DNA from: Candidatus Portnoybacteria bacterium
GTDB lineage: Bacteria; Patescibacteriota; Minisyncoccia; Portnoybacterales; GWB1-42-6
Assembly (NCBI GenBank): GCA_028688325.1
Contig: JAQTYI010000001.1
Location: forward strand, 31,088 to 95,087
DNA: 64,000 nucleotides
Reading direction: 5' to 3'
A model generated the notes under the pieces. It had not been told where the DNA came from. It saw nothing but the letters and a program-made list of their open reading frames with translations, and made no database searches. The position numbers were made by a program, and so were the translations under genes. Below, in pieces: positions 8,770 through 59,876 of this stretch. Positions within the stretch are counted from its first letter, which is position 1. Each line of letters opens with the position of its first letter.

Positions 8770-8797
8770 AAAAAATTTAATAGTAAAATTGTATTTT

Positions 8798-8990
8798 CAA
8801 GCCGCCCATAGCGAAAAAATAATCAGAAAATCGAGATGAGCGAGTCGTTTAAAATCGCGTGCTATGGTGGGGCCCCAAGCGTCAGCTTGGGGCGTTGCGG
8901 ATAGCGATTTTAGATGAGCGAATCCGATTTTCTTTATTTTTTACGCTCGGGCGCGGTCTTTTGGCTACTTTTCTGCTGACAGAAAAGTAG
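8798..8990. repeat. About 200-bp structured intergenic repeat family, copy 1
   Basis: Shares ccgcccatagcgaaaa..aatcgagatgagcgag..cgtttaaaatcgc..ggggccccaagcgtcagcttggggcg..gcgattttagatgagcgaatccgatttt..ctacttttctgNNNNcagaaaagtag with the copies at 17907, 42311 and 49781, and more distantly with the copy at 62121. Confidence 0.75.
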
Positions 8991-9000
8991 CAAGATGATT

Positions 9001-10422
9001 TTATTTTCTCCTCCCCAACAGCACCACCAACGGCGTTTTAAATATTATCTTCAGATCCAGCCACAGAGACCAATTCTCGATATAATAAGCATCCAATTTC
9101 GCCTCTTCATCGAAATCTATTTCCGAGCGCCCAGAAATTTGCGCCAGCCCCGTGATGCCGGGCTTAACATTGAAAACTTTTTTATGCCACCTCTCATATT
9201 TGGCAACCTCTTTGGGCATATGCGGCCGGGGCCCGACCAAGCTCATATTACCAAAAAGCACATTAAAAAATTGCGCCAGTTCATCCAAGCTTGAGGCCTC
9301 CAGAAAACGGCCGAATTTCGTGCGGCGCGGATCGTTTAGAACCTTAAACACGGGGCCCTGCCGTCCGCTCTGCTTGGCGGCCAATTCATCTTCAAGCTCG
9401 CTGGCCTTGCCGTCTTTATCATACTGAGAACCGGTGCAATACTCTATTTTCATTGACCGGAATTTATAGGTATTGAAAATACCGTCCGGCCCGACGCGCT
9501 CATTTTTATATATCACGGGGCCCGGAGAATCCAGCTTCACCAGAGCCGCCACCACGGCCATGATGGGCGAAAAAATCACAATGCCGAAAATCGAACCGAA
9601 AAAGTCCAGCACTCTTTTGATTATTTTTCCCCAACCGTCAAGCGCCGTGCGCTTTAATTCAACCAGCGGAATTCCCGCCAGCGAGTCAAATTCGACATTA
9701 ATGGTCAGCGTCTGGAACAAATTGGGCACGAATTTAAAGGATAAGCGCCTCTCTTCGCAAAAATCGATCAGGCCCAAGACCTGCTCGCGGGCAAAATCGG
9801 GATTAGCCAGCATAACATCGTCTATCGATTCGCGCTTCACCGCTTCTTTTATTTTATCCAGGTCTAAATCCTGAAAATGTCCGGCCACATTATAGCCAAG
9901 AGATTTTTCGTCTTCCATTTCGCTTATCAATTCCTGCGATATCCTGTCTCCGCCCACGACCAAAATATTATGAACGCCGTATTTATAACGCGTGACTAAA
10001 AATCTTTGGATGGCGCGAACGACTATCCTGCCAAACAACACGAAAAATATCGCCAATATCCAGGCCGCGAATATCAAAAAACGAGAGTCAAACCATTCCC
10101 GGCGGATAAAACTATAAATAATCACCACGGCTAACCCCGCCGAAGCGCCAATGAGAATGCGCGCAAAGTTCTCCAAGATGCCGTTGGCGCGGCGTATCTC
10201 ATAAAGCCCGGACAGCGCGAAAATAATCAGCATAAAAAAGCCGATGAGCGCCGTTAAGCCCAGATATTTTTCCAGAGGCAAATTGATGCCAAAAAGCACC
10301 GGCCGCAAGCTGGCAACCAAAGAGCTTGTGCGCAGCCAATAAGCCGCCAGCCCGGCCAGCAATAGCATCAGATAATCCACCGGCACCAGCGCGGCTGTAA
10401 AAATTAGTTCGGATCGTTTCAT
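9001..10422 (-). CDS. Polyprenyl-phosphate sugar phosphotransferase (WbaP/bacterial sugar transferase family)
   Basis: N-terminal multi-TM region plus the C-terminal Bac_transf signature (VGPRPHMP..KPGITGLAQISGRSEI..WSLWLDLKIIFKT). Confidence 0.85.
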   Translation of the reverse strand: MKRSELIFTAALVPVDYLMLLLAGLAAYWLRTSSLVASLRPVLFGINLPLEKYLGLTALIGFFMLIIFALSGLYEIRRANGILENFARILIGASAGLAVVIIYSFIRREWFDSRFLIFAAWILAIFFVLFGRIVVRAIQRFLVTRYKYGVHNILVVGGDRISQELISEMEDEKSLGYNVAGHFQDLDLDKIKEAVKRESIDDVMLANPDFAREQVLGLIDFCEERRLSFKFVPNLFQTLTINVEFDSLAGIPLVELKRTALDGWGKIIKRVLDFFGSIFGIVIFSPIMAVVAALVKLDSPGPVIYKNERVGPDGIFNTYKFRSMKIEYCTGSQYDKDGKASELEDELAAKQSGRQGPVFKVLNDPRRTKFGRFLEASSLDELAQFFNVLFGNMSLVGPRPHMPKEVAKYERWHKKVFNVKPGITGLAQISGRSEIDFDEEAKLDAYYIENWSLWLDLKIIFKTPLVVLLGRRK

Positions 10423-10505: not shown

Positions 10506-10948
10506 GAAGTCCAAGCAAATCGGGCAATCGCCCTTCGCTACGCGAAGGGAGGAAAGTCCGAACTCTCTCTCCCTGCCACGGCGGGGTTAAAAAAGGTAGC
10601 GGCTAACAGCCGTCCATCGTAAGATGCGAGGTGCGAACAGTGACGATTTTATCCGAAAGGATAAAATCGCCCTCCGAAGCTTTACGCGTAGGAGGGCGCA
10701 ATTTGACCATAAGAAATTGCAAAATTTCCAAAGTCAAAATGAAACGGCAAAATCCTTACCGGGTGCAAGATCAAACTATGAGACCGCAAGCTTGGTTCTC
10801 ATAAGACAAGTAGATCGCCCGAGCCCCGCAGCAATGCGGGGCCCAGACAGATGATTGCCCATTCGCTCGTTGCATCGCCCAGGACTTGTCCTGAGCGAGC
10901 GCAGCGAGTCGAAGGACAAAATTCGGCTTATAGATTTGTTTGGACAAT
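10506..10948 (+). ncRNA. rnpB: RNase P RNA (bacterial type A-like)
   Basis: 5' GAAGUCCAAGC (P1); P3 hairpin cccttcgc-ta-cgcgaaggg; P4 5' strand AGGAAAGUCCGAAC; P4 3' strand ACAAAAUUCGGCUUAUA near the 3' end; the closing strand gatttgtttggac pairs with gtccaagcaaatc. A terminator hairpin follows at 10949-10980. Confidence 0.75.
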
Positions 10949-17894: not shown

Positions 17895-17906
17895 CTTGTT
17901 TTTTCT

Positions 17907-18136
17907 CCGCGCATACGAAAAACTTTAAGACAAAATCGAGATGAGCGAGGCGTTTAAAATCGCGTGCTGTGGCGGGGCCCCAAGCGTCAGCTTGGGGCGT
18001 TGTGCATAGCGATTTTAGATGAGCGAATCCGATTTTGTTAAAGTTTTATCGCCGCACGGGAACTCTTTTGCTACTTTTCTGGTTACAGAAAAGTAGATTA
18101 AATTATATTAACCTGGATTCCCGCTTTCGCGGGAAT
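17907..18136. repeat. About 200-bp structured intergenic repeat family, copy 2
   Basis: See copy 1. This copy adds a terminal hairpin attcccgc-tttc-gcgggaat. Confidence 0.75.
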
Positions 18137-42310: not shown

Positions 42311-42587
42311 CAAGCCGCCCATAGCGAAAATGGGGGTTGTTCTGCCGCGCATACGAAAAACTTTAAGACAAAATCGAGATGAGCGAGGCGTTTAAAATCG
42401 CGTGCTGTGGCGGGGCCCCAAGCGTCAGCTTGGGGCGTTGTGCATAGCGATTTTAGATGAGCGAATCCGATTTTGTTAAAGTTTTATCGCCGCGCGGGAA
42501 CTCTTTTGCTACTTTTCTGGTTACAGAAAAGTAGATTAAATTATATTAACCTGGATTCCCGCCCCGCATTTGATGCGGGGCGGGAAT
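42311..42587. repeat. About 200-bp structured intergenic repeat family, copy 3 (extended)
   Basis: Nearly identical to copy 2. The terminal hairpin is lengthened to attcccgccccgca-tttga-tgcggggcgggaat, with pairing preserved. Confidence 0.75.
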
Positions 42588-44696: not shown

Positions 44697-46022
44697 ATGA
44701 ACTATTTTACCATTACCTATGGCTGTCAAATGAATAGGTCCGACAGCGAGAAAATCACGACCCGCCTCCGTAAAATGGGTCACCAACCGGCCAAAAACGC
44801 GGCTCTGGCCGAATTAATAGTGGTTAATCTTTGTTCGGTCAGAGAAAGCGCCGTCCATCGCGCGCTGGACCAGATACATAAACTATCTGATGGTCGAAAA
44901 AAAATAATCGCGGCCGGATGCATTCTGCCGCAAGACAGAAAAAAGCTGGCTGCCAAAAATATCGCTATCTGGCACCCGGATGATTATTTTTCGCAAGTCC
45001 CCCTGCGGGAAAGCGAATTCAGCGTGTTCGTGCCGATAATGACCGGCTGCAACAACTTCTGTTCTTATTGCGCCGTGCCCTTCACGCGGGGCAGAGAAAA
45101 ATCACGCCCCGCCAAAGAAATAATCGCCGAAATAAAAAAACTGCTCAAAAACGGAGCTAAAGAGATAATTTTGCTTGGGCAGAATGTGAATTCTTATAAA
45201 GATACCGCCGAAACATTTAATCCCCCCACCCCCCTTTTGCGTAAGGGGGGCGAAAAACCCGTATCTGCCTCCCTTGTAAAAAGGGGGGCGGGGGGATTAA
45301 AAAATACCTCGATCGACTTTCCGGCCCTATTAATAATAATCAACGCCCTCTCCGGCAACTTCCGCCTTTCCTTCATCACTTCCCATCCCAAAGATATGTC
45401 GGATAAGCTGATTGAAACGATGGCCAAGTGTAAAAAAATTATTCCTTATTTGCATTTGCCCGTTCAAAGCGGCGACGACAAGATCTTGCGGGCTATGAAC
45501 AGACATTATAGTGTCGCGCATTATAAAAATTTGATAAAAAAGATCCACTCCTCCTTTGCCCGCTGGCGGGCTTCGGAGGACAAGCCGCCCTTTTCTCCCA
45601 TAGCCATCTCCACCGACATAATTGTTGGCTTTCCCGGCGAAACTGCTAAACAATTTCAAAACACGCTAAAACTGATAAAGAATGTTAATTTTGATATGAT
45701 ATATTTTGCCCGGTATTCTCCGCGATCCGGCACCGCGGCCGCCAAATTAAAAGACAATGTTTCGCCGAAAGAAAAAAGACGCCGGGCGCAAGTGATAAAT
45801 TCCCTGCTAAAAAAACAGGCACTGGAGTTGAATAAAAAATATATCGGGCAAGAAGTCGAGATACTGGTGGAAAAAGTCGACGCGAACTGGGCCCGGGGAA
45901 AAACTTCAACTAACAAGGAAGTGATGTTGCCGCGAAAAAAATTGAAGATAGGACAATTTACAACGGTAAAAATAACCGAAGCCGCCGCTTGGCATTTGAA
46001 GGGATTAGAAAAGCCGCGCTAA
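44697..46022 (+). CDS. miaB: MiaB/RimO-family radical-SAM methylthiotransferase (likely tRNA i6A37 methylthiotransferase) with an in-frame insert of about 25 aa
   Basis: N-terminal MTTase domain (YGCQMN), radical-SAM CNNFCSYC, TRAM domain. The insert TFNPPTPLLRKGGEKPVSASLVKRGAGGLK is encoded by the poly-G/C palindrome at 45218-45300. Confidence 0.85.
   Translation: MNYFTITYGCQMNRSDSEKITTRLRKMGHQPAKNAALAELIVVNLCSVRESAVHRALDQIHKLSDGRKKIIAAGCILPQDRKKLAAKNIAIWHPDDYFSQVPLRESEFSVFVPIMTGCNNFCSYCAVPFTRGREKSRPAKEIIAEIKKLLKNGAKEIILLGQNVNSYKDTAETFNPPTPLLRKGGEKPVSASLVKRGAGGLKNTSIDFPALLIIINALSGNFRLSFITSHPKDMSDKLIETMAKCKKIIPYLHLPVQSGDDKILRAMNRHYSVAHYKNLIKKIHSSFARWRASEDKPPFSPIAISTDIIVGFPGETAKQFQNTLKLIKNVNFDMIYFARYSPRSGTAAAKLKDNVSPKEKRRRAQVINSLLKKQALELNKKYIGQEVEILVEKVDANWARGKTSTNKEVMLPRKKLKIGQFTTVKITEAAAWHLKGLEKPR
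45218..45300. repeat. Poly-G/poly-C palindromic element inserted in frame in miaB
   Basis: aatccccccaccccccttttgcgtaaggggggcgaaaaacccgtatctgcctcccttgtaaaaaggggggcggggggatt. Confidence 0.7.
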
Positions 46023-46204: not shown

Positions 46205-47224
46205 ATGTCAAAGCCAACTTATCCCCAAAAACCGATAATCGTCGTGGTCGGCCCCACGGCCTCGGGAAAATCCGACTTAGCAGTTAAGCTCGCTAAAAAA
46301 TTCAACGGCGAGGTTATTTCGGCCGATTCGCGCCAGGTTTACAAAGGCATGGATATCGGCACGGGAAAGGTGCCTCTCTCAAGTCCCCCCCTTGCGCAAA
46401 GGGGGGCCAGGGGGGTTAAACCTGCTGGCTACTACGGCGGCATTGCACATTATTTAATCGATGTGGCCTCGCCAAGCCGCCGATTTACCGCCGGGCAATA
46501 CAAAAAACTGGGGCAAGCAGCAATAAAAAAGATACAAGACAAAAACAAGATTCCCATCGTTTGCGGCGGCACCGGATTTTATATCCGCATGCTTGTGGAC
46601 GATCTGCAAGTTCCGGCCGTCAAGCCGGACTTAAAACTGCGCGCCAAATTGGAGAAAAAGACAACACAAGAACTATTCGCCGAGCTTAAAAAACTGGATC
46701 CGCGCCGCGCCGCGGAAATCGACCGCGCCAATCCCCGTCGGCTCGTTAGGGCGCTGGAGATAATTTATCTAACTGGCAAACCCGTGCCGCCGCCCCCCCC
46801 CTCTGTCATTCCGGGCTTGACCCGGAATCCAGAACCTGGATCCCGCATCAAGTGCGGGATGACAAATAATAATGTATTGTTCCTCGGCATCCGCCTCCCC
46901 CGACCCAAACTCGCCAAACGCATCAAAGCGCGCCTGGCTAAACGCCTTAAACAAGGAATGCTCGCCGAAGTCAAAAAACTCCGCGCGCAGGGCGTTTCCT
47001 GGAAACGACTGGACAGCTTCGGCCTGGAGTACCGCTGGCTGGCGAAATTTTTGCAAAACAAAATCTCCTATGAGGAGATGGTTGAGCGCCTGCAAAAAGA
47101 TATAGAACATTATGCCAAACGGCAGATGACCTGGTTTGGCCGCGATGAACGGATTCGCTGGATAAAAAATTCTGCGCAAGCGGAAAAATTTATGGCCAAA
47201 TTCTTGAAAAAATCAGCTCTCTAG
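46205..47224 (+). CDS. miaA: tRNA dimethylallyltransferase with two in-frame repeat-derived inserts
   Basis: P-loop GPTASGKS, and SADSRQVYKGMDIGTGK. Insert 1 at about 46384-46420 is LSSPPLAQRGARGVKPA (poly-G/C family). Insert 2 at about 46790-46866 is PPPPPSVIPGLTRNPEPGSRIKCGMTNN (gtcattcc...gggatgac family). Confidence 0.85.
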   Translation: MSKPTYPQKPIIVVVGPTASGKSDLAVKLAKKFNGEVISADSRQVYKGMDIGTGKVPLSSPPLAQRGARGVKPAGYYGGIAHYLIDVASPSRRFTAGQYKKLGQAAIKKIQDKNKIPIVCGGTGFYIRMLVDDLQVPAVKPDLKLRAKLEKKTTQELFAELKKLDPRRAAEIDRANPRRLVRALEIIYLTGKPVPPPPPSVIPGLTRNPEPGSRIKCGMTNNNVLFLGIRLPRPKLAKRIKARLAKRLKQGMLAEVKKLRAQGVSWKRLDSFGLEYRWLAKFLQNKISYEEMVERLQKDIEHYAKRQMTWFGRDERIRWIKNSAQAEKFMAKFLKKSAL

Positions 47225-48772
47225 TTTTTTCTTCAACATCCCAACCACCACCTGAGGATTGGCCTTGCCCTTCGTGGCGGCCATGACTTTGCCGACAAGA
47301 AACATCAGCGAGTTTTGCTTGCCTTTTTTAAAGTCCGCCACCGGGCCGGGGTTGGCGCTTAAAACTTCTTCGATTGCCAGATTCAGCTCTTCCTCATCGC
47401 TCACCTGGCCCAAGTCCTTTTCGGCAATGACATGCGAGGGATCCGCTCCCGTGGCGAACATTTCCGCCAGCACCGTTTGCGCGCCGGAAGATGAAACCAC
47501 GCCTTGCGCTGTCAGTTTGATGAACTCGGCGAATTTGGCCGGTGTGATTTTTACGGCGGAAAAATCATTGCCCGACTGATAAACCAGCCGCTGGAGCTCC
47601 GTAATCAAATAGTTCACCGCCAGTTTTGCCGATTTGGCATAGTCAATTTTCGGCTCGGCCATTTTAGCCAAAGCCGCCAATTCGCTGGCCGTTTTTTCAA
47701 AATAATTTCCCAGATCGAAATTAACGACTAAAACATCGATATCTCCGGCCGACAAACCGTATTCTTTGGCGAATCTCTCCCTTTTTTGCGCCGGCAATTC
47801 CGGAAGCTCTTTTTTCAATTCCTCGCTCAAGATCACCAACCCCTTTAGCGGCGGCAGATCCGGCTCGGGAAAATAGCGGTAATCATGCGCCTCTTCTTTC
47901 GCGCGCTGACTGAATGTCTCGCCTGTTGCATCATCCCAACCGCGCGTTTCCTGAATTATCTTTTCGCCCGCTTCCAACGCCTCGGTTTGCCTTTTTATCT
48001 CATAGTCAATCGCCCGCTCAACTACTCGAAAAGAGTTTAGATTTTTTATCTCTACCTTCGTCCCTAATTTCTTTAACCCTCCTGCTTCCCCCTTTACAAG
48101 GGGGGCAGATACGGGTTTATCTCCCCCCTTACGCAAAAGGGGGGTTGGGGGGTTAAAGTCCACGGGCCGTATACTAATATTGACTTCGCACCTCATCTGC
48201 CCTCGCTCCATATCCGCATCGGAAATTCCCAAATATCTAAAAATTAATTGCAACTCCTGGCAAAATTTGCGTGCCTGAGCGCCGGATTTTATATCGGGCT
48301 CTGTTACCAATTCCATCAACGGCACGCCGGCGCGGTTTAAATCCACAAGCGAATAGTCAGCTCCCTTGGGATGCGTTAATTTGCCGGTGTCCTCCTCAAG
48401 ATGTATCCGGGTTATCCTGACGCGGGCTTTTTCATCGTTTTCTCCGATATCCAAATACCCGCCTTCAATTAGCGGCTGGTCGTATTGTGAGATCTGGTAA
48501 CCCTTAGGCAAATCGGGGTAAAAGTAGTTCTTGCGGTCGAACTTGGATGTGTCGCCGATCTGGCCTCCCAGGGCCAATCCCGCCTTTAGAACCATATGCA
48601 CCGCTTCCTCGTTGATGACAGGCAAGGTTCCGGGCTGGCCGGAGCAGACGGGGCAGATATCAACATTGGGCTCGGTTTCAAGGCCCAGCCCGTTGGGACA
48701 AGAACAAAACATCTTGCTCTTGGTTTTCAGCTCGGCGTGGATTTCCAGGCCTATAGTCGGTTCGTATTTCAT
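47213..48772 (-). CDS. gatB: Asp-tRNA(Asn)/Glu-tRNA(Gln) amidotransferase subunit B with an in-frame insert of about 25 aa
   Basis: Starts MKYEPTIGLEIHAEL and has GatB/YqeY domains. The insert DFNPPTPLLRKGGDKPVSAPLVKGEAGGLK is encoded by the element at 48073-48156. The track start (MNITEFLLPGM) lies inside MITE 1b. Confidence 0.9.
   Translation of the reverse strand: MKYEPTIGLEIHAELKTKSKMFCSCPNGLGLETEPNVDICPVCSGQPGTLPVINEEAVHMVLKAGLALGGQIGDTSKFDRKNYFYPDLPKGYQISQYDQPLIEGGYLDIGENDEKARVRITRIHLEEDTGKLTHPKGADYSLVDLNRAGVPLMELVTEPDIKSGAQARKFCQELQLIFRYLGISDADMERGQMRCEVNISIRPVDFNPPTPLLRKGGDKPVSAPLVKGEAGGLKKLGTKVEIKNLNSFRVVERAIDYEIKRQTEALEAGEKIIQETRGWDDATGETFSQRAKEEAHDYRYFPEPDLPPLKGLVILSEELKKELPELPAQKRERFAKEYGLSAGDIDVLVVNFDLGNYFEKTASELAALAKMAEPKIDYAKSAKLAVNYLITELQRLVYQSGNDFSAVKITPAKFAEFIKLTAQGVVSSSGAQTVLAEMFATGADPSHVIAEKDLGQVSDEEELNLAIEEVLSANPGPVADFKKGKQNSLMFLVGKVMAATKGKANPQVVVGMLKKKLES
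48073..48156. repeat. Poly-G/poly-C palindromic element inserted in frame in gatB
   Basis: The reverse complement is nearly identical to the miaB copy (ttaaccccccaaccccccttttgcgtaaggggggagataaacccgtatctgccccccttgtaaagggggaagcaggagggttaa). Confidence 0.7.
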
Positions 48773-48903
48773 ACCAGGTAGTAGAAATTCGGTTATATTC
48801 ATAAATCCATACGGATTTTTAAATTGCCGAATTCTATAGTTTTATCAAATTTTGCCAATTAGTGATAGTTAACTAAACTGCCGAATTTTCACTACCTGGC
48901 ATA
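48770..48903. mobile_element. MITE copy 1b with 20-bp TIRs, flush against the gatB start codon
   Basis: cataCCAGGTAGTAGAAATT ... AATTTTCACTACCTGGcat; the interior is about 80% identical to copy 1a; ATA flanks. Confidence 0.65.
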
Positions 48904-48911
48904 TCTATATT

Positions 48912-49754
48912 CTACTCTTTTTTTGAAGCCAAATAAACATTCCTCAAAAGCAGTGCTACGGTCAATGGGCCAAGGCCTCCCGGCACCGGCGTTAAAAACG
49001 CCGCCTTGCCTTCTACGCTTTTTGCGTCTACATCTCCTGCCACCTTACCGTCGTGATACCGAGTGACACCGGCGTCTACTAAGATTGCGCCTTCTTTTAT
49101 CATCTCTCCTTTTATCATCTGCGGACAGCCGCAAACCGATATCAAAATATCCGCTTCTTTTATTTTTTTTTCCGCGCCAAAAACCACGCAGGTATTGCGC
49201 ACCATATAATCAATATCCGCCCCTTCGCGCTTTAAAATTATTTTCAAGGTCTCTCCGAATTTTTCGGAGTTCACCAGCGCCAACATCTTCTTACTGTCAA
49301 ATTTATTTTTCATCGCCGCCTGCAATACCGCCAGGATGGCCGAGGGCAAGACCGGTATCAGATTTTCTTTGCTCCTTTCCAGCAGTTTTTTATTTTCCTT
49401 GTGAAATCCATCAACATCCTTGGCCGGATCAATGGCATCAATAATTCTGTCGACATTCAAGACCGCCGGCAAGGGCAGTTGGACGATTATGCCGTTAACA
49501 TCCGTATCCTCGTTTAAATGTTTGATATAAGAGGTTATTTCATCTTCCTTGGCTTGAGCACCGAACCTGTGCTCAACCGCTTCGATGCCCACCTTGGCGG
49601 CGGCCGCCTTTTTCAGTTTTATATAAAGCTTGGAGGCCTCATCATCGCCGACCAAAACAATCGCCAGCTTTGGTGCTCTTTTTTCCTTGCTCACACTTTC
49701 TTTCAATTCCTTTAAAATTTTATTGGCCAGTGCTTTACCGTTGAAAAGTTTCAT
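48912..49754 (-). CDS. folD: Bifunctional methylenetetrahydrofolate dehydrogenase/cyclohydrolase
   Basis: FolD motifs (K..A...GI, NGIIVQLPLP, GVTPGGVGP). The internal Met (MKLFNGKAL) is preferred because the upstream ATG lies inside repeat copy 4. Confidence 0.85.
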   Translation of the reverse strand: MKLFNGKALANKILKELKESVSKEKRAPKLAIVLVGDDEASKLYIKLKKAAAAKVGIEAVEHRFGAQAKEDEITSYIKHLNEDTDVNGIIVQLPLPAVLNVDRIIDAIDPAKDVDGFHKENKKLLERSKENLIPVLPSAILAVLQAAMKNKFDSKKMLALVNSEKFGETLKIILKREGADIDYMVRNTCVVFGAEKKIKEADILISVCGCPQMIKGEMIKEGAILVDAGVTRYHDGKVAGDVDAKSVEGKAAFLTPVPGGLGPLTVALLLRNVYLASKKE

Positions 49755-49780
49755 TAAATTTATAAATAATGATTCGGATT

Positions 49781-49973
49781 CCCCACCCATAGCGAAAAAA
49801 TAATCAGAAAATCGAGGCGAGTTGAGCGTCTAAATTTGCGTGCTGTGGTGGGGCCCCGACCGTCAGGTCGGGGCGTTGCGGATAGCAAATTTAGCGAGAC
49901 GAGCCAGATTTTCTTTATTTTTTACGCTCGGGCGCAGGTCTTTTGGCTACTTTTCTGCCTGCCAGAAAAGTAG
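49781..49973. repeat. About 200-bp structured intergenic repeat family, copy 4
   Basis: The central hairpin is ccccgacc-gtca-ggtcgggg here versus ccccaagc-gtca-gcttgggg in copies 1-3: compensatory changes with pairing preserved. The distal hairpin is ctacttttctg-cctgc-cagaaaagtag. Confidence 0.75.
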
Positions 49974-49985
49974 CGAGGAAAAAAA

Positions 49986-51215
49986 CTAATATCTAAAATC
50001 CTTATATATAGGAAACTTCTTTACCAGTATTTCCACTTCCTTTTTTATCTCACTCCGCAATTTTTTATTCTCAAAATCCTTAAGCAACTGAGCGATCAGC
50101 CCCGCTAAAAATGCCGCGTCTTTTTCCTTAAATCCCCTGGTGGTAATGGCCGGCGAGCCCAAACGGATGCCGGAAGGATTGAACGGCGGGCGCGGATCGT
50201 TGGGAATAGAATTGCAATTTAAATATATGCCGAGTTTATCCATTTCATTTTGCACTTGGCGCATATCCAAATTAAAATCAGTCAGATCCAAAACCATTAG
50301 ATGATTATCGGTGCCGCCGCTGACAACTCTTATTCCTTGCTCTGCAAATTCCTGCGCCATAGCATGGGCGTTTAAAATGACTTGGTGCTGATATTTTTTA
50401 AATGCCGGCGCCATCGCTTCCAAAAAACAAATCGCCTTGGCCGCCACGATATTATCCAGTGGCCCGCCCTGCGTGCCAGGGAAAACGCCTTTATCAATAA
50501 GACGCGCCAGCTCTTTTTTGCACAGTATCAGCCCGCCGCGCGGGCCGCGCAAGGTTTTATGGGTCGTTGAAGTAACAACATCGCAATGCGGAAAGGGATG
50601 ACTATGCTCGCCCGCGATAACCAGACCCGCGATATGGGCGATATCCGCCATCAGATAAGCGCCGACTTTTTTGGCGATCTTTGAAAAACCCTCGAAATCC
50701 AGCTTGCGCGAATACGAGGTCGTACTGACGACTATGAGCTTGGGTTTCTGCTCCAATGCGATTTTTTCCACCTTCGCCAGATCGACAAGCTCGGTTTTTG
50801 CGTCAACTCCGTAATGCGCAAAATTATACATCTGTCCGGAAAAATTGACTGGCGAGCCGTGCGTCAAATGCCCGCCGTTGGCCAAACTGAAGCCCAAAAT
50901 TTTATCGCCGGGTTTGAGCAGCGCCAGGTAAACCGCGGCATTGGCTTGGGAACCGGAATGCGGCTGAACATTGGCGTGCTCGGCGCCAAATAACTTTTTG
51001 GCGCGCTCCACGGCCACGCTTTCTATCTCATCAATGAACTCATTGCCGCCGTAATATCTTTTGCGCGCATAACCCTCCGAGTATTTATTGGACAAGGGCG
51101 TTCCCATAGCGCGCAAGACCTCCTCGGAAGCGTAGTTTTCCGAAGGAATCAAAGTCAGCCCGTCCCGCTGGCGAACAATCTCTTTTTTGATTAACTTGTT
51201 TATTTTTTTATCCAT
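49986..51215 (-). CDS. glyA: Serine hydroxymethyltransferase
   Basis: PLP-binding HKTLRGPRGG and SHMT N-terminal motifs. Confidence 0.9.
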   Translation of the reverse strand: MDKKINKLIKKEIVRQRDGLTLIPSENYASEEVLRAMGTPLSNKYSEGYARKRYYGGNEFIDEIESVAVERAKKLFGAEHANVQPHSGSQANAAVYLALLKPGDKILGFSLANGGHLTHGSPVNFSGQMYNFAHYGVDAKTELVDLAKVEKIALEQKPKLIVVSTTSYSRKLDFEGFSKIAKKVGAYLMADIAHIAGLVIAGEHSHPFPHCDVVTSTTHKTLRGPRGGLILCKKELARLIDKGVFPGTQGGPLDNIVAAKAICFLEAMAPAFKKYQHQVILNAHAMAQEFAEQGIRVVSGGTDNHLMVLDLTDFNLDMRQVQNEMDKLGIYLNCNSIPNDPRPPFNPSGIRLGSPAITTRGFKEKDAAFLAGLIAQLLKDFENKKLRSEIKKEVEILVKKFPIYKDFRY

Positions 51216-51264: not shown

Positions 51265-51690
51265 TTATATTATTCCGCTGCTCCCAAATCTTTTTTCTCC
51301 CCTATTGGTCGCCGGCATTTCCTGAACTTCTTCAATTTCCGGCATCTCTATCTTTTGGATAAGCAACTGGGCAATTTTTTGCCCCTTTTTTATCTCAAAG
51401 TCCTCTTGGCTCAGGTTAACCAGGCCTATCAGATATTCGCCGGTATAGTTGCTGTCATAAACCCCGCCCAGCGTCTTTATGCCGAATTTATGCGACGGCC
51501 CGCCTTTATCCCAAATAAGACCGACAAAGCCATCCGGAATTTTAATGGCTATTCCGGTCGGACAGGAAATCCTTTGCCCGGGCTTTAAAACAACATCTTG
51601 CGATGAATAGATATCCATTCCCGCATCCCCCTCGCTCCCAAAGTTCGGCAACTTCGCCTCGGCTGATAATTTTTTAACCTGAATTTTCAT
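51265..51690 (-). CDS. dut: dUTP diphosphatase
   Basis: dUTPase motifs (G.DIYS, GLIWDKGG, GVYDSNYTGE, RGEKRFGSSG). Confidence 0.85.
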   Translation of the reverse strand: MKIQVKKLSAEAKLPNFGSEGDAGMDIYSSQDVVLKPGQRISCPTGIAIKIPDGFVGLIWDKGGPSHKFGIKTLGGVYDSNYTGEYLIGLVNLSQEDFEIKKGQKIAQLLIQKIEMPEIEEVQEMPATNRGEKRFGSSGII

Positions 51691-51839: not shown

Positions 51840-53261
51840 CTATACCTTCCTTTCAGAAAAATAATCCCCCGACTTGCGCAAATCGATGTCGCGGCCGCAA
51901 TAACGCGCCCCCTCGGCGCATTTGCCTGTCTTAAAGCACGGCGGCTCAAGCACACTCAAAAGGGATGCTTTATTGCCGCGAATCGATTCTATGCCTTGAC
52001 GCAGACCACGACCGAGATGATATATCTCCTCCTGGGCGCACCAGCAAAGACGCTTGCCCTGCTCGTGAAAAATGGCATTGAGCGAGCCCTTCTTGTCGTA
52101 GGACACCATCGCCCCATAAGGCGCGATAGCCGCGGATAGGGTTGGCGGCAAGGATTTGGCCAAATCCAGCCATGCATACAGATATTCCTTGGCAATTCCG
52201 GCCATATTCGGCAGCATCGCGATAACCGGCGGCAGATAAAAATTGCCCGTCAAAACCGGCTTGCCGCGGCGAATGGTGCGATGGCGCTGGTCCTGGCCCA
52301 TGCAGGCCAAAGAAATTTCCACCGAGGTTTTCACATCATGGATATTGTTATCCATATATTCGGGCAGAAAATGAAGCAAGTCCACCGGATACATATCTTC
52401 CGGCTCGGGAAGGACAATCTGGCCATCAATATCGCCCAGATTTGCCAAAATTAATCCCGGTTTGAATTTTACCCGGCTGTCAATCCGCAAAATATTTGGC
52501 GACCAAGTCCGGCCCCGGCGGGAAAACATATAAGCGACTTCCGGGTGGCGCGCCAAAACCAGATCCGCCATTTTTTGCGTCAGATGCATTAAGCCCGGAG
52601 TCCAGGCCGCTTTATAAAGAGACACCAAACCGATCAGGTCAAAAGTATGATCAAACCCGGTCGGAAAAATCGCTGAGATGAACGAGCGCAGCTGTTCCTG
52701 TGCGATTTTGGGAGCATTGGCCTCTATATACTTTGCCGGGGCATTGGGCCGCTCCTTGGCGATGGTTTGGGCGGTTAGCTTCGTCGCCGCTTCGATATGG
52801 CGATGGTAAATTTCTACGCCATTTTTTGCGAAATCCATTACCCGCTTCAACGACTCCGCCGGCAAGTCCGGCCAGAGTATCCGGATGTATTCTTCGATGG
52901 AAGGAAAATCTGGATTCAAAAACATTTTGGCGCAAAAACGGCCGCTGCGCTGGTCGGAATTGTAGAAAGGATGATCCAGGTGCGCGCCGAGCGTGATATC
53001 GCTTACCGCGATGCCTTCGATGTCAAAGGTGAAATAATGATGCTCCAGGGTCGTGTGATGGCTGGTTTCAAAAAGACGGCCTTTCACATTGATCTGGCTG
53101 CCCAATTTTGGCGACTCGGCCTGATAACATTTTTGCGCCGCGTGGCTGGCCAAGAGCAAAAGACCGTCCCTCTTTTTAAACAACGCCGAAATCACACGAT
53201 AAATTCTGTCCTGCCATCTTTCCACTAATATTGTTTCTGCTCTTAATTTTACTTCTATCAT
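51840..53261 (-). CDS. Tandem ThyX-like (flavin-dependent thymidylate synthase family) fusion protein with a Cys-rich C-terminal tail
   Basis: N-terminal half: HHTTLEHHYFTFDIEGI..HLDHPFYNSDQRSGRF aligns to the ThyX segment HETPFEHIVFTF..FRHRIASYNELSGRY, but the RHR motif is replaced by LDH. C-terminal half: EISLACMGQDQRHRTIRRG retains RHR. The tail has CWC..CFKTGKC..C. Confidence 0.55.
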   Translation of the reverse strand: MIEVKLRAETILVERWQDRIYRVISALFKKRDGLLLLASHAAQKCYQAESPKLGSQINVKGRLFETSHHTTLEHHYFTFDIEGIAVSDITLGAHLDHPFYNSDQRSGRFCAKMFLNPDFPSIEEYIRILWPDLPAESLKRVMDFAKNGVEIYHRHIEAATKLTAQTIAKERPNAPAKYIEANAPKIAQEQLRSFISAIFPTGFDHTFDLIGLVSLYKAAWTPGLMHLTQKMADLVLARHPEVAYMFSRRGRTWSPNILRIDSRVKFKPGLILANLGDIDGQIVLPEPEDMYPVDLLHFLPEYMDNNIHDVKTSVEISLACMGQDQRHRTIRRGKPVLTGNFYLPPVIAMLPNMAGIAKEYLYAWLDLAKSLPPTLSAAIAPYGAMVSYDKKGSLNAIFHEQGKRLCWCAQEEIYHLGRGLRQGIESIRGNKASLLSVLEPPCFKTGKCAEGARYCGRDIDLRKSGDYFSERKV

Positions 53262-53285: not shown

Positions 53286-53891
53286 CTATAAAACCGCTAA
53301 GATTTCTTGATGCACCGCTTCCGCGCTTTTTTCTCCGTCAACCACGGCAAACGCTTTGCTGAAACGCTTTGACCGAGCCAACATTTCGTAATTGGCCGCC
53401 ACCTTCCGCATCTTTTCCAACTTCTCAAAGATACGAATATTTGTTCCTCTGCCGTTTATCCGGCGCAAGCATTCTTCGGGATCAACACGCAAAAGAACGA
53501 CCTTATCCGGGCAGAGGAAATCATCGTTAAGCGACAACAGCTTGCGCAATGGCACATCGATGCTGCCAAACGCCACGGAAGAAAAGGCATATCGGTCGCT
53601 CACGACTATTTTGCCTTCCCGCAACATCGGAATAACTTCTTCTTCTAAGTGCTCGGAGCGGTCTTGCGCGAATAATTCCTGTAATTTTAAAGGAGCTGCT
53701 TGTTCCCTGCCTTCCAGAATATCCTTTATTTTCTTTCCCGCTCCCGTGCGCTGAGTCGGCTCTTTAGTTAAAAAAACAGGCAAGCCGCGCTCGGCAAAAT
53801 GCTTTTTCAAGCGCCTGGCCTGTTCGCTTTTGCCCGAGCCGTTCAAGCCCTCAAGAACGATAAATCTTCCTCCGTAAAGATTTTGTTTCAT
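53286..53891 (-). CDS. tmk: Thymidylate kinase
   Basis: P-loop GLNGSGKS, DRY-like motif, lid region. Confidence 0.85.
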   Translation of the reverse strand: MKQNLYGGRFIVLEGLNGSGKSEQARRLKKHFAERGLPVFLTKEPTQRTGAGKKIKDILEGREQAAPLKLQELFAQDRSEHLEEEVIPMLREGKIVVSDRYAFSSVAFGSIDVPLRKLLSLNDDFLCPDKVVLLRVDPEECLRRINGRGTNIRIFEKLEKMRKVAANYEMLARSKRFSKAFAVVDGEKSAEAVHQEILAVL

Positions 53892-53971: not shown

Positions 53972-54490
53972 TCATTGCTTGTCATAATTTTCCAAAGAAT
54001 CGTCGATTATATCAAGCTTGACTTTCGCCTTCTTGAAAAGCTCCCGGCTTTGTGCGTCGGCGTGGTATCTTTTCTGCGCCACTACCCTTTTGATGCCGAC
54101 CCTGGCAATGCGCCTGGCGCAATTGATGCAGGGGGTCATTTTGCAATAAAGCGTGGCCCCGCGCAGAGCGATGCCGTCCATGGCCGCCTGTAAAATGGCG
54201 TTCTCTTCAGCGTGCAGAGTGCGCACGCAATGTTGGGACTGATTGCCTTTATTGTCAATAAGAGTAACCATCAAATGCCCCGCCTCGTCGCAATGCTTGT
54301 CTCCTGGAGCCGAACCGACATAACCGGTGGTTAATATGGTATTTTTATCGCTCACTATTATCGCACTGCTTCTCCCGCGATCGCAGGTGGCGCGCCTGCT
54401 CAACGGCTCTATTAATCCCAAAAAATACTCGTCCCAATTCGGCCGGCTGTATTTTATAATCTTTGATTCGAGTTTTGCTTTTTTTGCCAT
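53972..54490 (-). CDS. dCMP deaminase (ComEB-like)
   Basis: Zinc-binding HAE and PCINC motifs. Confidence 0.85.
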   Translation of the reverse strand: MAKKAKLESKIIKYSRPNWDEYFLGLIEPLSRRATCDRGRSSAIIVSDKNTILTTGYVGSAPGDKHCDEAGHLMVTLIDNKGNQSQHCVRTLHAEENAILQAAMDGIALRGATLYCKMTPCINCARRIARVGIKRVVAQKRYHADAQSRELFKKAKVKLDIIDDSLENYDKQ

Positions 54491-54605
54491 AAAGATAGTG
54501 ATTGGCTGCTTAAAAAAGACAAATTATTGTCATGCCGAACTTGTTTCGGCATCTCAGCCATGGATCCTGAAACAAATTCAGGATGATAAAAATATAAAAA
54601 ATGCT

Positions 54606-55151
54606 CTAATTCTTTAAAATCTCGTCCACTTGTTTATACAATTCCTCATAACTCCCATTATTGTCTATTAAAAAATCAGCGCGGTTTTTCAGATCCTTTA
54701 TTTGCAGCTCCGACTCATCTTCATTCGCCTTCTTGAAATCATCGAAGGTTTTCTTGGCATCATCCGCATTTTCTCCTCTCTTCACGATACGCTCATAACG
54801 GATATTCATATCGGCCTCCAAATAAGTCAGCTTGAATTTCGGATTGGCTTTTAAAAATTTTATATCGGCCAAACGGCGGATACCGTCGATGACTATAACT
54901 TCGCCGGCCTCTTTTTTTACGTCTTCCGCCATGACCTGCGCGAATAGATCTTCGCCGAAGCTCTGGCGCAAGACAGTAGACAATTTTTGCATGTTGTCGC
55001 GCGATTGTTCCAGCGACAACCTGTCCAGCACATCGCGCAGCATTGTTGAAAAACGCCGGGTTTTGGCGCTATATTTTTCCGTCGCGTATTTGGCGACAGT
55101 CCCCTTACCCGAAGCCATTTCTCCCGCCAGCCCCAAAATTATTTTCATCAT
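54606..55151 (-). CDS. P-loop nucleoside/nucleotide kinase-family protein (dNMP/adenylate-kinase-like)
   Basis: Walker A GLAGEMASGKGT; its position in the thymidylate cluster suggests a nucleotide kinase. Confidence 0.5.
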   Translation of the reverse strand: MMKIILGLAGEMASGKGTVAKYATEKYSAKTRRFSTMLRDVLDRLSLEQSRDNMQKLSTVLRQSFGEDLFAQVMAEDVKKEAGEVIVIDGIRRLADIKFLKANPKFKLTYLEADMNIRYERIVKRGENADDAKKTFDDFKKANEDESELQIKDLKNRADFLIDNNGSYEELYKQVDEILKN

Positions 55152-55264
55152 TTCGATAGAGTTTATCTTCGTCAGTATACTAAATTTACACCGCCCAAAA
55201 ACAAAAAGCAAGCTCCGCTGGAAGCTTGCTTTTATGCCCAACTATTGATGTCTGACATCAATAG

Positions 55265-59436: not shown

Positions 59437-59512
59437 CGGGCCGTACGGGATTCGAACCCGTGGTCTTCTCCGTGACAGGGAGACGCGTTAAGCCTGGCTA
59501 CGCTAACGGCCC
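59437..59512 (-). tRNA. tRNA-Asp (GTC)
   Basis: Manual fold: acceptor GGGCCGT/ACGGCCC, D arm GCGTAGCCAGGC, anticodon loop CTGTCAC, T arm GGTTCGAATCC. CCA is not encoded. Confidence 0.85.
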
Positions 59513-59537
59513 ATAAACATTTTCACGATAAAACTCG

Positions 59538-59611
59538 TAGCTGCGAGTGGACTCGAACCACTGACCTGGCGCTTATGAAGCGCCCGCTCTAACCGACTGA
59601 GCTACGCAGCC
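59538..59611 (-). tRNA. Elongator-type tRNA-Met (CAT), or Ile2 if the C34 is lysidinylated
   Basis: Acceptor GGCTGCG/CGCAGCT with G1·U72, D arm GCTCAGTCGGTTAGAGC, anticodon loop TTCATAA, T arm AGTGGTTCGAGTCCACT, pyrimidine11:purine24. Confidence 0.85.
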
Positions 59612-59805
59612 CAACTACGCTCCGATTTTCATCGGAGCTTCGATGGGCAAGTGATGTAATAAATAAACTTCTTGCCCTTCCGAAGCTCAAATGCAATTTG
59701 GGCGAAGGAGGGAGCTACGCAGCCATGCACCCTCTCTATAAAAAATAATAACGCCTGAACTAAATTCTGTCACCATTTAATTTACGGCGCTAATATTTTA
59801 ATATG

Positions 59806-59876
59806 TTGCGGGGCCCGGAATTGCACCGGGGTCTGGGGCTTATGAGACCCCCGAGATACTTCTTCTCTACCCCGCG
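59806..59876 (-). tRNA. Initiator-like tRNA-Met (CAT) with atypical D and T loops
   Basis: C1xA72 mismatch, A11:U24, and an acceptor/anticodon arm very similar to E. coli tRNA-fMet (CGCGGGG..CTCATAA..CCCCGCAA). The D loop AGAAGTA lacks G18G19 and the T loop is TGCAATT (G55). Confidence 0.6.

Follow-up and report, generated by a model that had tools for sequence, protein, structure and literature searches.

A fused ThyX of Candidatus Portnoybacteria with two ThyX-fold domains and dUMP-site residues divided between them

Many pathogens cannot live without flavin-dependent thymidylate synthase (ThyX, FDTS), and the enzyme is a target for antibiotics. The canonical enzyme (PF02511, TIGR02170), as represented by Thermotoga maritima (Tm) TM0449 (PDB 1O26) and Mycobacterium tuberculosis (Mtb) Rv2754c (PDB 2AF6), has one domain per chain and forms a homotetramer with four active sites. 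The dUMP site of the Mtb enzyme combines Arg95 and Arg199 of subunit A with Arg87, Ser105, Arg107 and Tyr108 of subunit C (PMC6514825); in general terms, one subunit of the canonical enzyme provides the site with the RHR arginine and the C-terminal arginine (Tm R78/R174, Mtb R95/R199), and the two-fold-related subunit provides the Ser-x-Arg-Tyr loop (Tm S88/R90/Y91, Mtb S105/R107/Y108). The roles of Ser88, Arg90 and Tyr91 in canonical ThyX have been described, and Tyr91 was termed strictly conserved and important (PMC11940539). According to a later paper that cites the work (PMC3498832), mixed ThyX heterotetramers located the active site (Leduc et al. 2004 PNAS). A ThyX-like UMP/dUMP methylase of polyoxin biosynthesis, PolB (PDB 4P5A), is a single-domain protein encoded in a natural-product cluster. 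A domain duplication in the ThyX of Chloroflexi was remarked upon as 'not characterized' (Valas & Bourne 2009, PMC3224940); fused forms are unmentioned in the ThyX reviews and in the Asgard ThyX phylogeny paper, a literature search for ThyX with DPANN or CPR yielded nothing relevant, and no experiments on any member of the superfamily described below were found in the accessible literature.

The window, i.e. the whole stretch of 64,000 nucleotides analysed here, encodes a fused two-domain ThyX (Table 1). The preliminary description had placed a 473-aa ORF at this locus, and its exact coordinates, minus strand and ATG start were confirmed; the strings that it had quoted are also present in the translation, i.e. 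HHTTLEH at residues 68-74, HLDHPFYNSDQRSGRF at 94-109, QDQRHRT at 323-329, KRLCWCAQEEI at 403-413 and PPCFKTGKCAEGARYCGR at 440-457. The ORF is intact and is preceded, directly 5' of the ATG, by a strong Shine-Dalgarno sequence (AAAGGAGG). The product is identical (100%) to MDD2753073.1 of Ca. Portnoybacteria, named "FAD-dependent thymidylate synthase", and to MDD4982917.1.

Table 1. Positions in the window of the fused thyX, its parts and its neighbours
Feature	Position	Strand	Basis and remarks
Fused two-domain thyX	51840..53261	(-)	473 aa + stop; ATG start; ORF list
N-terminal ThyX-fold domain, residues 1-250	52512..53261	(-)	PF02511 and hhalign vs Tm ThyX
Inter-domain linker, residues 247-268	52458..52523	(-)	AF2-model secondary structure; variable in alignments A1 and A2
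C-terminal ThyX-fold domain core, residues 269-437	51951..52457	(-)	
HHTTLEH (68-74)	53040..53060	(-)	Counterpart of canonical HETPFEH (Tm H53-H59)
AHLDH (93-97), degenerate RHR position	52971..52985	(-)	Profile alignment
SGRF (106-109)	52935..52946	(-)	Counterpart of Tm S88-G89-R90-Y91
AQEQLR (187-192)	52686..52703	(-)	R192 = counterpart of Tm R147
QDQRHRT (323-329)	52275..52295	(-)	Q323 = Tm Q75; R326-H327-R328 = Tm R78-H79-R80
HEQGKRLCWCAQEEI (399-413)	52023..52067	(-)	R404 = Tm R174 (Mtb R199); AQxEI = Tm AQWEI; includes C406
C-terminal tail, residues 438-473	51843..51950	(-)	Extends past canonical ThyX end; holds C442, C448, C455
tmk (thymidylate kinase)	53286..53891	(-)	24 nt upstream of thyX; PF02223 E 1e-42; adjoins fused thyX in 20/80 loci
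dCMP deaminase, dUMP source	53972..54490	(-)	PF00383 E 4e-19; 20/80 loci
P-loop (AAA_17/AAA_18) kinase	54606..55241	(-)	Pfam; 18/80 loci
dut (dUTPase), dUMP source	51265..51690	(-)	PF00692 E 4e-32; 13/80 loci
glyA (SHMT), makes 5,10-methylene-THF	49986..51215	(-)	PF00464 E 7e-148; 10/80 loci
folD	48912..49790	(-)	PF00763 and PF02882; 4/80 loci
Terminator-like hairpin, 13 pairs and T run, after rplK	55204..55233	(-)	Consensus scan only

The chain contains two ThyX folds, as the preliminary description had claimed, in place of the single domain of canonical ThyX. PF02511 matches one stretch of the protein (residues 38-218, E 2.3e-10, 41 bits, above the gathering score of 24.8), and the N-half aligns with Tm ThyX by hhalign at a probability of 97.8% (E 1e-12); the C-half has a ThyX fold as well. 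Compared with each other by hhalign, the two halves show a remote similarity (72%, E 3e-5) when the diverse alignment A2 is used, and this signal needs A2, since with close CPR homologues only the probability is 0.5%. No signal came from pairwise BLASTP when the C-half was compared with either the N-half or Tm ThyX, Pfam found no match to the isolated C-half at E<=10, and a phmmer search of the PDB with the query returned no relevant match. TIGR02170 scores 30.8 bits on the query, below its equivalog cutoff of 87.9, and 84-110 bits on longer relatives (below), in which both TIGR02170 and Pfam match two stretches. The PF02511 scan proposed earlier as a check thus returns one domain in the query and two in those relatives; the CPR C-half has diverged too far for Pfam, which therefore finds a single domain here, so that taking a one-domain scan against the two-domain reading would be misleading. 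The term 'tandem duplication' is borne out as to the two folds, and as to origin it is conjectural: halves so remotely alike do not tell here whether one thyX was duplicated long ago or whether two diverged thyX genes became fused. Two candidates for naturally split N-half and C-half genes, which would have backed a two-subunit model, were rejected; P0184 is a truncation at a contig end, and the adjoining 190-aa and 238-aa ORFs of L084 are one frameshifted gene, overlapping at query residues 205-209 in different frames, on a metagenome contig from an old short-read assembly.

In the profile alignment, the active-site residues of Tm ThyX are partitioned between the halves. At the positions of Tm R78/H79/R80 the N-half has A93/H94/D96 and the C-half has R326/H327/R328. 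For S88 and R90 the N-half has S106 and R108, and the C-half a gap and G333. R147 is matched by R192 in the N-half and A377 in the C-half, and R174 by A219 and R404, respectively. The N-half thus lacks Arg78, Arg80 and Arg174 (Tm numbering) and keeps Ser106, Arg108, Phe/Tyr109, Arg192 and the His68 motif, and the C-half lacks Ser88, Arg90, Tyr91, Arg147 and the H53 motif (Tm numbering) and keeps Gln323, Arg326-His327-Arg328 and Arg404. The full dUMP-site set (Tm Q75, R78, R80, S88, R90, R147, R174) is therefore present, but split between the halves, and the signature RHRxxxxxxS, which canonical ThyX keeps together, does not occur within either domain: RHR (326-328) is found in the C-half only, and S106/R108 in the N-half only. 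Retention of RHR in the C-half had been noted before; of its reported replacement by LDH in the N-half, the loss of both arginines holds, but the alignment reads A93-H94-(L95)-D96 with the central histidine kept. By the same alignment both halves, and not one as previously described, are degenerate, and they are so in a strictly complementary manner.

This partition is conserved among 343 full-length relatives: every retained site residue is 99-100% conserved (H68, S106, R108 and R192 each 100%; the QDQRHRT motif 99-100%), H94 is invariant, and the lost positions, including the degenerate RHR position of the N-half, are never Arg; a HHTTLEH-type motif is missing from the C-half. The same partition is found in relatives at 21-24% identity, archaea included. 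The conserved Tyr91 of canonical ThyX is replaced by Phe (F109) in the query; position 109 is Tyr throughout the long clade (100%), and the CPR clade is mixed, with Tyr in 61-66% and Phe in about one third.

The gene product is probably the flavin-dependent thymidylate synthase of the cell, with two ThyX-fold domains, one composite active site per N:C pair and a metal-binding Cys4 site; we infer catalytic activity, oligomeric state and metal binding from sequence. The reaction would be dUMP + 5,10-CH2-THF + reduced FAD -> dTMP + THF. The C-domain is predicted to contribute the residues of the 'subunit A role' (Q323, R326-H327-R328, R404), and the N-domain those of the 'subunit C role' (S106, R108, F/Y109, R192 and the H68xTxxEH motif). 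Since the two sets come from different subunits in the canonical site, each N:C pair would form one composite site and the reciprocal site would be inactive. Two such chains together, as a homodimer, would amount to a pseudo-tetramer that has two active sites in place of the four of the canonical tetramer, and the working N:C pair could lie within one chain or between chains, as both fit. The logic would be that of the Leduc heterotetramers, as far as these are described in the citing paper, namely a working site assembled from subunits with different defects; those were engineered, whereas here complementary defects would have been fixed by evolution in one polypeptide.

The preliminary description, in contrast, took only the N-half as degenerate, and the hallmark RHR survives in the C-half alone. 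C-domains might accordingly assemble among themselves into a tetramer of the canonical kind, leaving the N-domain as a scaffold or regulatory pseudo-enzyme, but we regard this as very unlikely: the C-half lacks Ser88, Arg90, Tyr91 and Arg147, which are critical or strictly conserved according to the literature, so that C-domains alone cannot complete a site, and the N-half holds exactly those residues, 100% conserved down to 21% identity, for which a scaffold would have no need.

Compared with canonical ThyX, the query also carries a C-terminal Cys-rich extension. The CWC...CxxxxxC...C tail reported for it is indeed a conserved addition, but of the CWC only the first cysteine (C406) is conserved superfamily-wide. 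The invariant set comprises C406, two residues past R404, and C442, C448 and C455 of the tail (99-100%; the three tail cysteines 100%), with E450, G451 and G456 conserved alongside; the tail is modelled at low confidence (pLDDT 56-68, AF2 model). These four cysteines form a putative Cys4 metal site, which would most probably bind a metal, as a structural Zn or an Fe-S cluster. A redox-active Fe-S cluster that passes electrons from ferredoxin, or from a donor like it, on to the flavin, which would make the superfamily a ferredoxin-linked, half-of-sites thymidylate synthase, is doubtful; canonical ThyX, unlike such an enzyme, oxidises NAD(P)H and does so without a dedicated pyridine-nucleotide domain.

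The fused form had been called unusual, which its distribution contradicts. There are at least 770 close homologues, and 686 cluster representatives (50% identity) matched at E<=1e-3; given these counts, the fused ThyX occurs far beyond chance. The 343 full-length relatives come from CPR, DPANN archaea and gut Alphaproteobacteria MAGs and include a large clade of 510-540-aa proteins (Chloroflexi and others), and the superfamily, with thousands of members, also includes Kryptonia, Armatimonadetes and Bacteroidota. The fused form is the standard ThyX across Patescibacteria (CPR), and the query belongs to a very large 'duplicated' ThyX family that is ordinary in distribution, is annotated already (the NCBI and JGI name of superfamily proteins being "FAD-dependent thymidylate synthase") and has had its duplication in print since 2009 (PMC3224940).

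The CPR profile matches proteins of 440-562 aa over profile positions ~2-450 (E 1e-25 to 1e-34), and the profile of the long clade recovers Ardenticatena, Chloroflexota, Kryptonia and others, the invariant columns being common to both in A2. The long Chloroflexi-type ThyX (e.g. Ardenticatena maritima WP_054493252.1, 524 aa) belongs to the same superfamily: the CPR profile matches it end to end at 100-135 bits, and its asymmetric residue partition and four cysteines are identical to those of the query. Partition and four invariant cysteines, as a definition of the family, were derived here and have no literature source. The long clade differs from the CPR clade in its longer inter-domain insert, in a C442-C448 spacing of ~12 residues against 5 in CPR, and in its retention of the 'GISR' arginine (Mtb R87), of Tyr at 109 and of a second domain that Pfam and TIGR02170 still detect; CPR members are shorter and have diverged further (21-24% identity). 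The chlamydial ThyX (CT632), which we take to be about 529 aa long and which Griffin et al. are said to have characterised biochemically in 2005 (J Biol Chem), may belong to the long clade, as its length matches; its membership, if true, would anchor the thymidylate synthase activity of the superfamily in experiment.

The genomes of CPR are reduced, and the organisms rely on their hosts, which could suit a decaying or inactive ThyX relic in cells that obtain dTMP from salvage, as could the frameshifted copy on contig L084. Such decay is nevertheless extremely improbable, because the motifs are invariant over hundreds of lineages in two domains of life, an intact ORF follows a strong ribosome-binding site, the operon setting is kept in other genomes, and the lone frameshift comes from a single old short-read assembly.

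The predicted thymidylate synthase is encoded in a same-strand dTMP cluster (kinase, dCMP deaminase, tmk, thyX, dut, glyA, folD), whose members had been named in the preliminary description and were confirmed by Pfam (Table 1); dut also adjoins the fused thyX of an archaeal relative. Within this cluster, dCMP deaminase and dUTPase would supply dUMP, GlyA and FolD would supply CH2-THF, and Tmk would consume dTMP. The real start of the P-loop kinase is probably the ATG at 55151; the hairpin after rplK falls within the mechanical ORF extension of this gene, and it likely delimits the dTMP transcription unit on its upstream side. Apart from this hairpin, the cluster was scanned for promoters and terminators, and sites were no commoner in it than in shuffled sequence. 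In agreement with the earlier statement that thyA is absent, tblastn of the window found no thyA (best E 0.3); a second thyX is likewise absent from the window.

This gene context bears on the alternative of a ThyX-fold flavoenzyme with another substrate or chemistry, e.g. a PolB-like UMP/dUMP C5-methylase or a (hydroxy)methylase of another pyrimidine nucleotide. The query resembles PolB in fold only, and sits in core dTMP metabolism, in contrast to the natural-product cluster of PolB. The recurrent neighbours are dUMP suppliers, CH2-THF suppliers and a dTMP kinase, no other thymidylate synthase is encoded in the window, and all of the canonical dUMP-contacting residues listed above are present and invariant across the two halves, which makes another substrate unlikely. 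One CPR genome carries thyA-folA directly upstream of its fused thyX, so that the latter is not always the sole thymidylate synthase; ordinary bacteria are known to carry thyA and thyX together (PMC6514825), and this also weakens the case for a different substrate.

For annotation, the domain-based approach leaves the second domain of CPR members undetected (one Pfam domain; TIGR02170 below its cutoff), and the family models could be improved. The fused form bears, beside an active-site helix, an invariant and unexplained putative Cys4 site. If the proposed working is true, the dTMP synthesis of CPR, DPANN, Chloroflexi and several other phyla would rest on a form of ThyX for which the accessible literature holds no structural or biochemical characterisation. 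The fused protein would then represent a natural half-of-sites ThyX, in which two complementary 'mutant' subunits are fixed in one chain, and would provide a ready system to dissect the catalytic contribution of each subunit.

The fused, two-domain thyX gene is an intact ORF with an ATG start, preceded directly by a strong ribosome-binding site (AAAGGAGG); its 473-aa product is identical to the public entries MDD2753073.1 and MDD4982917.1, annotated as FAD-dependent thymidylate synthase and encoded on a 788,852-bp contig. All of the neighbours listed in the preliminary description were borne out by Pfam (table below), and the genes of this dTMP cluster all lie on the minus strand, 24-195 nt apart. 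No thyA gene was found in the window by tblastn with E. coli ThyA (best E 0.3). The P-loop kinase also gives a weak DNMK match; its mechanical ORF start (TTG 55241) overlaps a terminator-like hairpin, and the true start is probably ATG 55151 (MMKIILGLAGE...). A promoter/terminator scan of the cluster gave nothing informative apart from one strong hairpin, which follows rplK and probably makes the kinase gene the start of the transcription unit. In the ThyX of the query, as in that of the nearest Portnoybacteria relatives, there is an N-terminal insertion of about 23 aa (ETILVERWQDRIYRVISALFKKRDG, residues 9-31), which is absent from most homologues and modelled at low confidence (pLDDT 54-61).

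Features of the dTMP gene cluster and of repeats and RNAs in the window
Feature	Position	Strand	Remarks
folD	48912-49790	-	two Pfam domains, E 3e-35 and 7e-35
glyA (SHMT)	49986-51215	-	Pfam E 7e-148
dut (dUTPase)	51265-51690	-	Pfam E 4e-32
fused thyX	51840-53261	-
N-terminal insertion of ThyX	53169-53237	-
tmk (thymidylate kinase)	53286-53891	-	Pfam E 1e-42
dCMP deaminase	53972-54490	-	Pfam E 4e-19
AAA_17/18 P-loop kinase	54606-55241	-	Pfam E 5e-10
terminator-like hairpin	55204-55233
89-nt element	45216-45304	+	in MiaB-like ORF, 44697-46022
89-nt element	48069-48157	-	in gatB, 47213-48802
~200-nt repeat	8793-9019, 17898-18124, 42336-42562, 49774-50000		last copy fills the glyA-folD gap
44-nt REP-like repeat	25495, 35538, 46824, 54548, 56629, 60585		46824-46867 in MiaA ORF (46205-47224); 54548-54591 between kinase and dCMP deaminase genes
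RNase P RNA, bacterial class A	10512-10946	+	109 bits
tRNA-Asp and two tRNA-Met	59437-59876	-

The domain scan proposed in the preliminary description yielded a single Pfam Thy1 stretch (residues 38-218, profile 13-164 of 191, E 2.3e-10), and the C-terminal half on its own had no Pfam match at a threshold as loose as E<=10; the query scored 30.8 bits on TIGR02170, below the cutoff of 87.9. No signal was obtained by pairwise BLAST of the two halves, nor by hhalign with close homologues only (0.5% probability). The single stretch is misleading, and the two halves were nonetheless borne out by profile comparisons. With an alignment that takes in relatives at 21-24% identity, hhalign matched the N-half (97.8%, E 1e-12) and the C-half (94.3%, E 1e-7, 153 columns) to Thermotoga maritima ThyX (reference sequence 219/220 identical to PDB 1kq4), and the halves to each other (72%, E 3e-5). 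A C-half-only profile gave 19 matches in PDB at E<=1, every one of them ThyX (best E 9.8e-9), in which QDQRHR pairs with ELVRHR and H..kkRlClnAqeEI with HFIGMRASEHADVEI. The more conservative relatives of the long clade (510-540 aa) show two matched stretches each by Pfam and TIGR02170 (e.g. 167.7 bits on Thy1 for P0335 and 109.7 bits on TIGR02170 for P0248). These independent lines of profile evidence show the C-half to be a ThyX domain.

Active-site residues of T. maritima ThyX (Tm) and their counterparts in the two halves
Tm ThyX	N-half	C-half
H53, T55, E58, H59	H68, T70, E73, H74	E301, M303, N306, I307
Q75	T90	Q323
R78	A93	R326
H79	H94	H327
R80	D96	R328
S88	S106	no counterpart
R90	R108	G333
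Y91	F109	K334
R147	R192	A377
R174	A219	R404
AQWEI	no counterpart	A409, Q410, E412, I413

The RHR motif had been described as lost from the N-half and replaced by LDH. The loss of both arginines stands; the motif position reads A-H-(L)-D with the central His kept, as R78, H79 and R80 map to A93, H94 and D96. Nor is the degeneracy one-sided: each half has lost residues that the other keeps, and the two complement each other. According to a review of ThyX structures (PMC6514825), two subunits of Mycobacterium tuberculosis ThyX hold one dUMP: subunit A contributes Arg95 and Arg199, and subunit C contributes Arg87, Ser105 and Arg107 together with Tyr108, which acts as a lid; R95, R199, S105, R107 and Y108 correspond to Tm R78, R174, S88, R90 and Y91. 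By these subunit assignments, the C-half has retained precisely the residues that subunit A supplies, and the N-half precisely those that subunit C supplies. Because a two-fold axis relates subunit A to subunit C, a canonical A:C pair makes two reciprocal sites. On the residue map, an N:C pair would hold one complete dUMP site, with a reciprocal site devoid of all the arginines and the serine; such a complementary partition would make the protein a half-of-sites enzyme by construction. The working N:C pair may form within a chain or between chains.

Conservation was scored over 343 full-length members: S106, R108, R192, H68 and H94 are conserved in 100%, and Q323, R326, H327, R328, H399 and R404 in 99-100%, and Arg never occurs at positions 93, 96 and 219. 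Position 109 is Tyr in every long-clade member and Phe in the query and about a third of the Patescibacteria-type (CPR) members, which is notable because, according to PMC11940539 and PMC8316439, Tyr91 of ThyX is strictly conserved and matters for the kinetics.

The Cys-rich tail starts at the canonical ThyX end (hhalign with the diverse alignment) and is modelled at low confidence (pLDDT 56-68). Four cysteines are 99-100% conserved (n=343): C442, C448 and C455 in the tail, and C406 on the active-site helix, two residues past the catalytic R404. Of the "CWC" noted initially, the first Cys is invariant throughout the superfamily and the second (C408) is kept in the CPR clade only. The CPR clade spaces the three tail cysteines as C-x5-C-x6-C and the long clade as C-x(~12)-C-x6-C; an invariant E-G lies between the second and third of them, and a Gly follows the third. 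Since the four are invariant over such evolutionary depth, they argue for a metal site, which may be structural Zn or an Fe-S cluster; no literature on this Cys4 site was found.

The architecture, initially regarded as unusual, proved to be common and already annotated. More than 770 close homologues, all of about 450-480 aa, are from Patescibacteria, and in species-representative genomes the CPR-type gene occurs in Portnoy-, Moran-, Parcu-, Pacei-, Wolfe-, Nealson-, Campbell- and Magasanikbacteria. An exhaustive profile search over 1.84 billion cluster representatives matched 686 of them at E<=1e-3, of which 129 reach E<=1e-30; one match is RME53089.1 of a Woesearchaeota archaeon, and end-to-end matches continue to about 100 bits among proteins of 440-562 aa. 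Another relative, P0262, lies in an archaeal context (ABCE1, TrmB, translin), likewise adjoining a dUTPase gene. The long-clade profile recovers at least 4,977 proteins on contigs of up to 4.9 Mb, from Chloroflexi (including the cultivated Ardenticatena maritima, WP_054493252.1), Kryptonia, Armatimonadetes and Bacteroidota. In the species-representative set, CPR-type genes at 43-47% identity in about 30 gut/rumen MAGs labelled Alphaproteobacteria, Rickettsiales or Ca. Enterousia suggest either horizontal transfer or mislabelled bins. Apparent split N-half/C-half genes were artefacts (one contig end, one frameshift). The gut/rumen loci (within L041-L080 of the related loci, e.g. L062, L065, L077, L078) are without dTMP-cluster neighbours.

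Over 80 loci, the genes that share the strand of the fused gene and lie no more than 6 kb away from it comprise tmk and dCMP deaminase (20 loci each), the P-loop kinase (18), dut (13), glyA (10) and folD (4), i.e. makers of dUMP and CH2-THF, plus dTMP phosphorylation. As the neighbours supply dUMP and CH2-THF and phosphorylate dTMP, synthesis of dTMP from dUMP is the parsimonious function of the fused ThyX. It is not always the sole thymidylate synthase: in a CPR genome (Ca. Moraniibacteriota MAG JAVEXR010000014.1; locus L013:4510-8610), a canonical thyA (PF00303, 395 bits) and folA (DHFR_1) lie directly upstream of fused thyX, tmk and dut in one row, which shows both types side by side. Co-occurrence of thyA and thyX is known in ordinary bacteria (PMC6514825).

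Several repeats were also observed in the window. The two sites of the 89-nt element are 85% complementary. Both insertions are in frame and run the same way along the coding strand of their gene, and they add nearly the same peptide of about 30 aa (FNPPTPLLRKGG[ED]KPVSA[SP]LVK..AGGLK) to housekeeping proteins that are unrelated to each other; the element resembles the in-frame palindromic elements of Rickettsia. The ~200-nt intergenic repeat folds into a near-perfect hairpin of ~150 nt and a second hairpin of 12 bp, with compensatory changes in 15 of the 72 predicted pairs (four copies only) and no match in Rfam; it may be either a palindromic element of the MITE kind or a structured RNA. The REP-like palindromic repeat (GGATCCCGGGTCAAGCCCGGGATGACAAAT) codes for ...PGLTRNPEPGSRIKCGMTNN... 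within MiaA.

The protein thus belongs, as a diverged representative of the CPR clade, to a known but uncharacterised superfamily of duplicated ThyX; the ThyX reviews and phylogenies searched make no mention of the duplicated form. The initial observation of two ThyX halves is confirmed and its interpretation was largely right, corrected in two respects, the complementary degeneracy and the common architecture. Chlamydial ThyX has about 529 aa and was reportedly characterised enzymatically in 2005; if it does belong to the long clade, activity of the superfamily is already proven. For a ThyX specialist, the complementary partition and the invariant Cys4 site may be the features that deserve experimental work.
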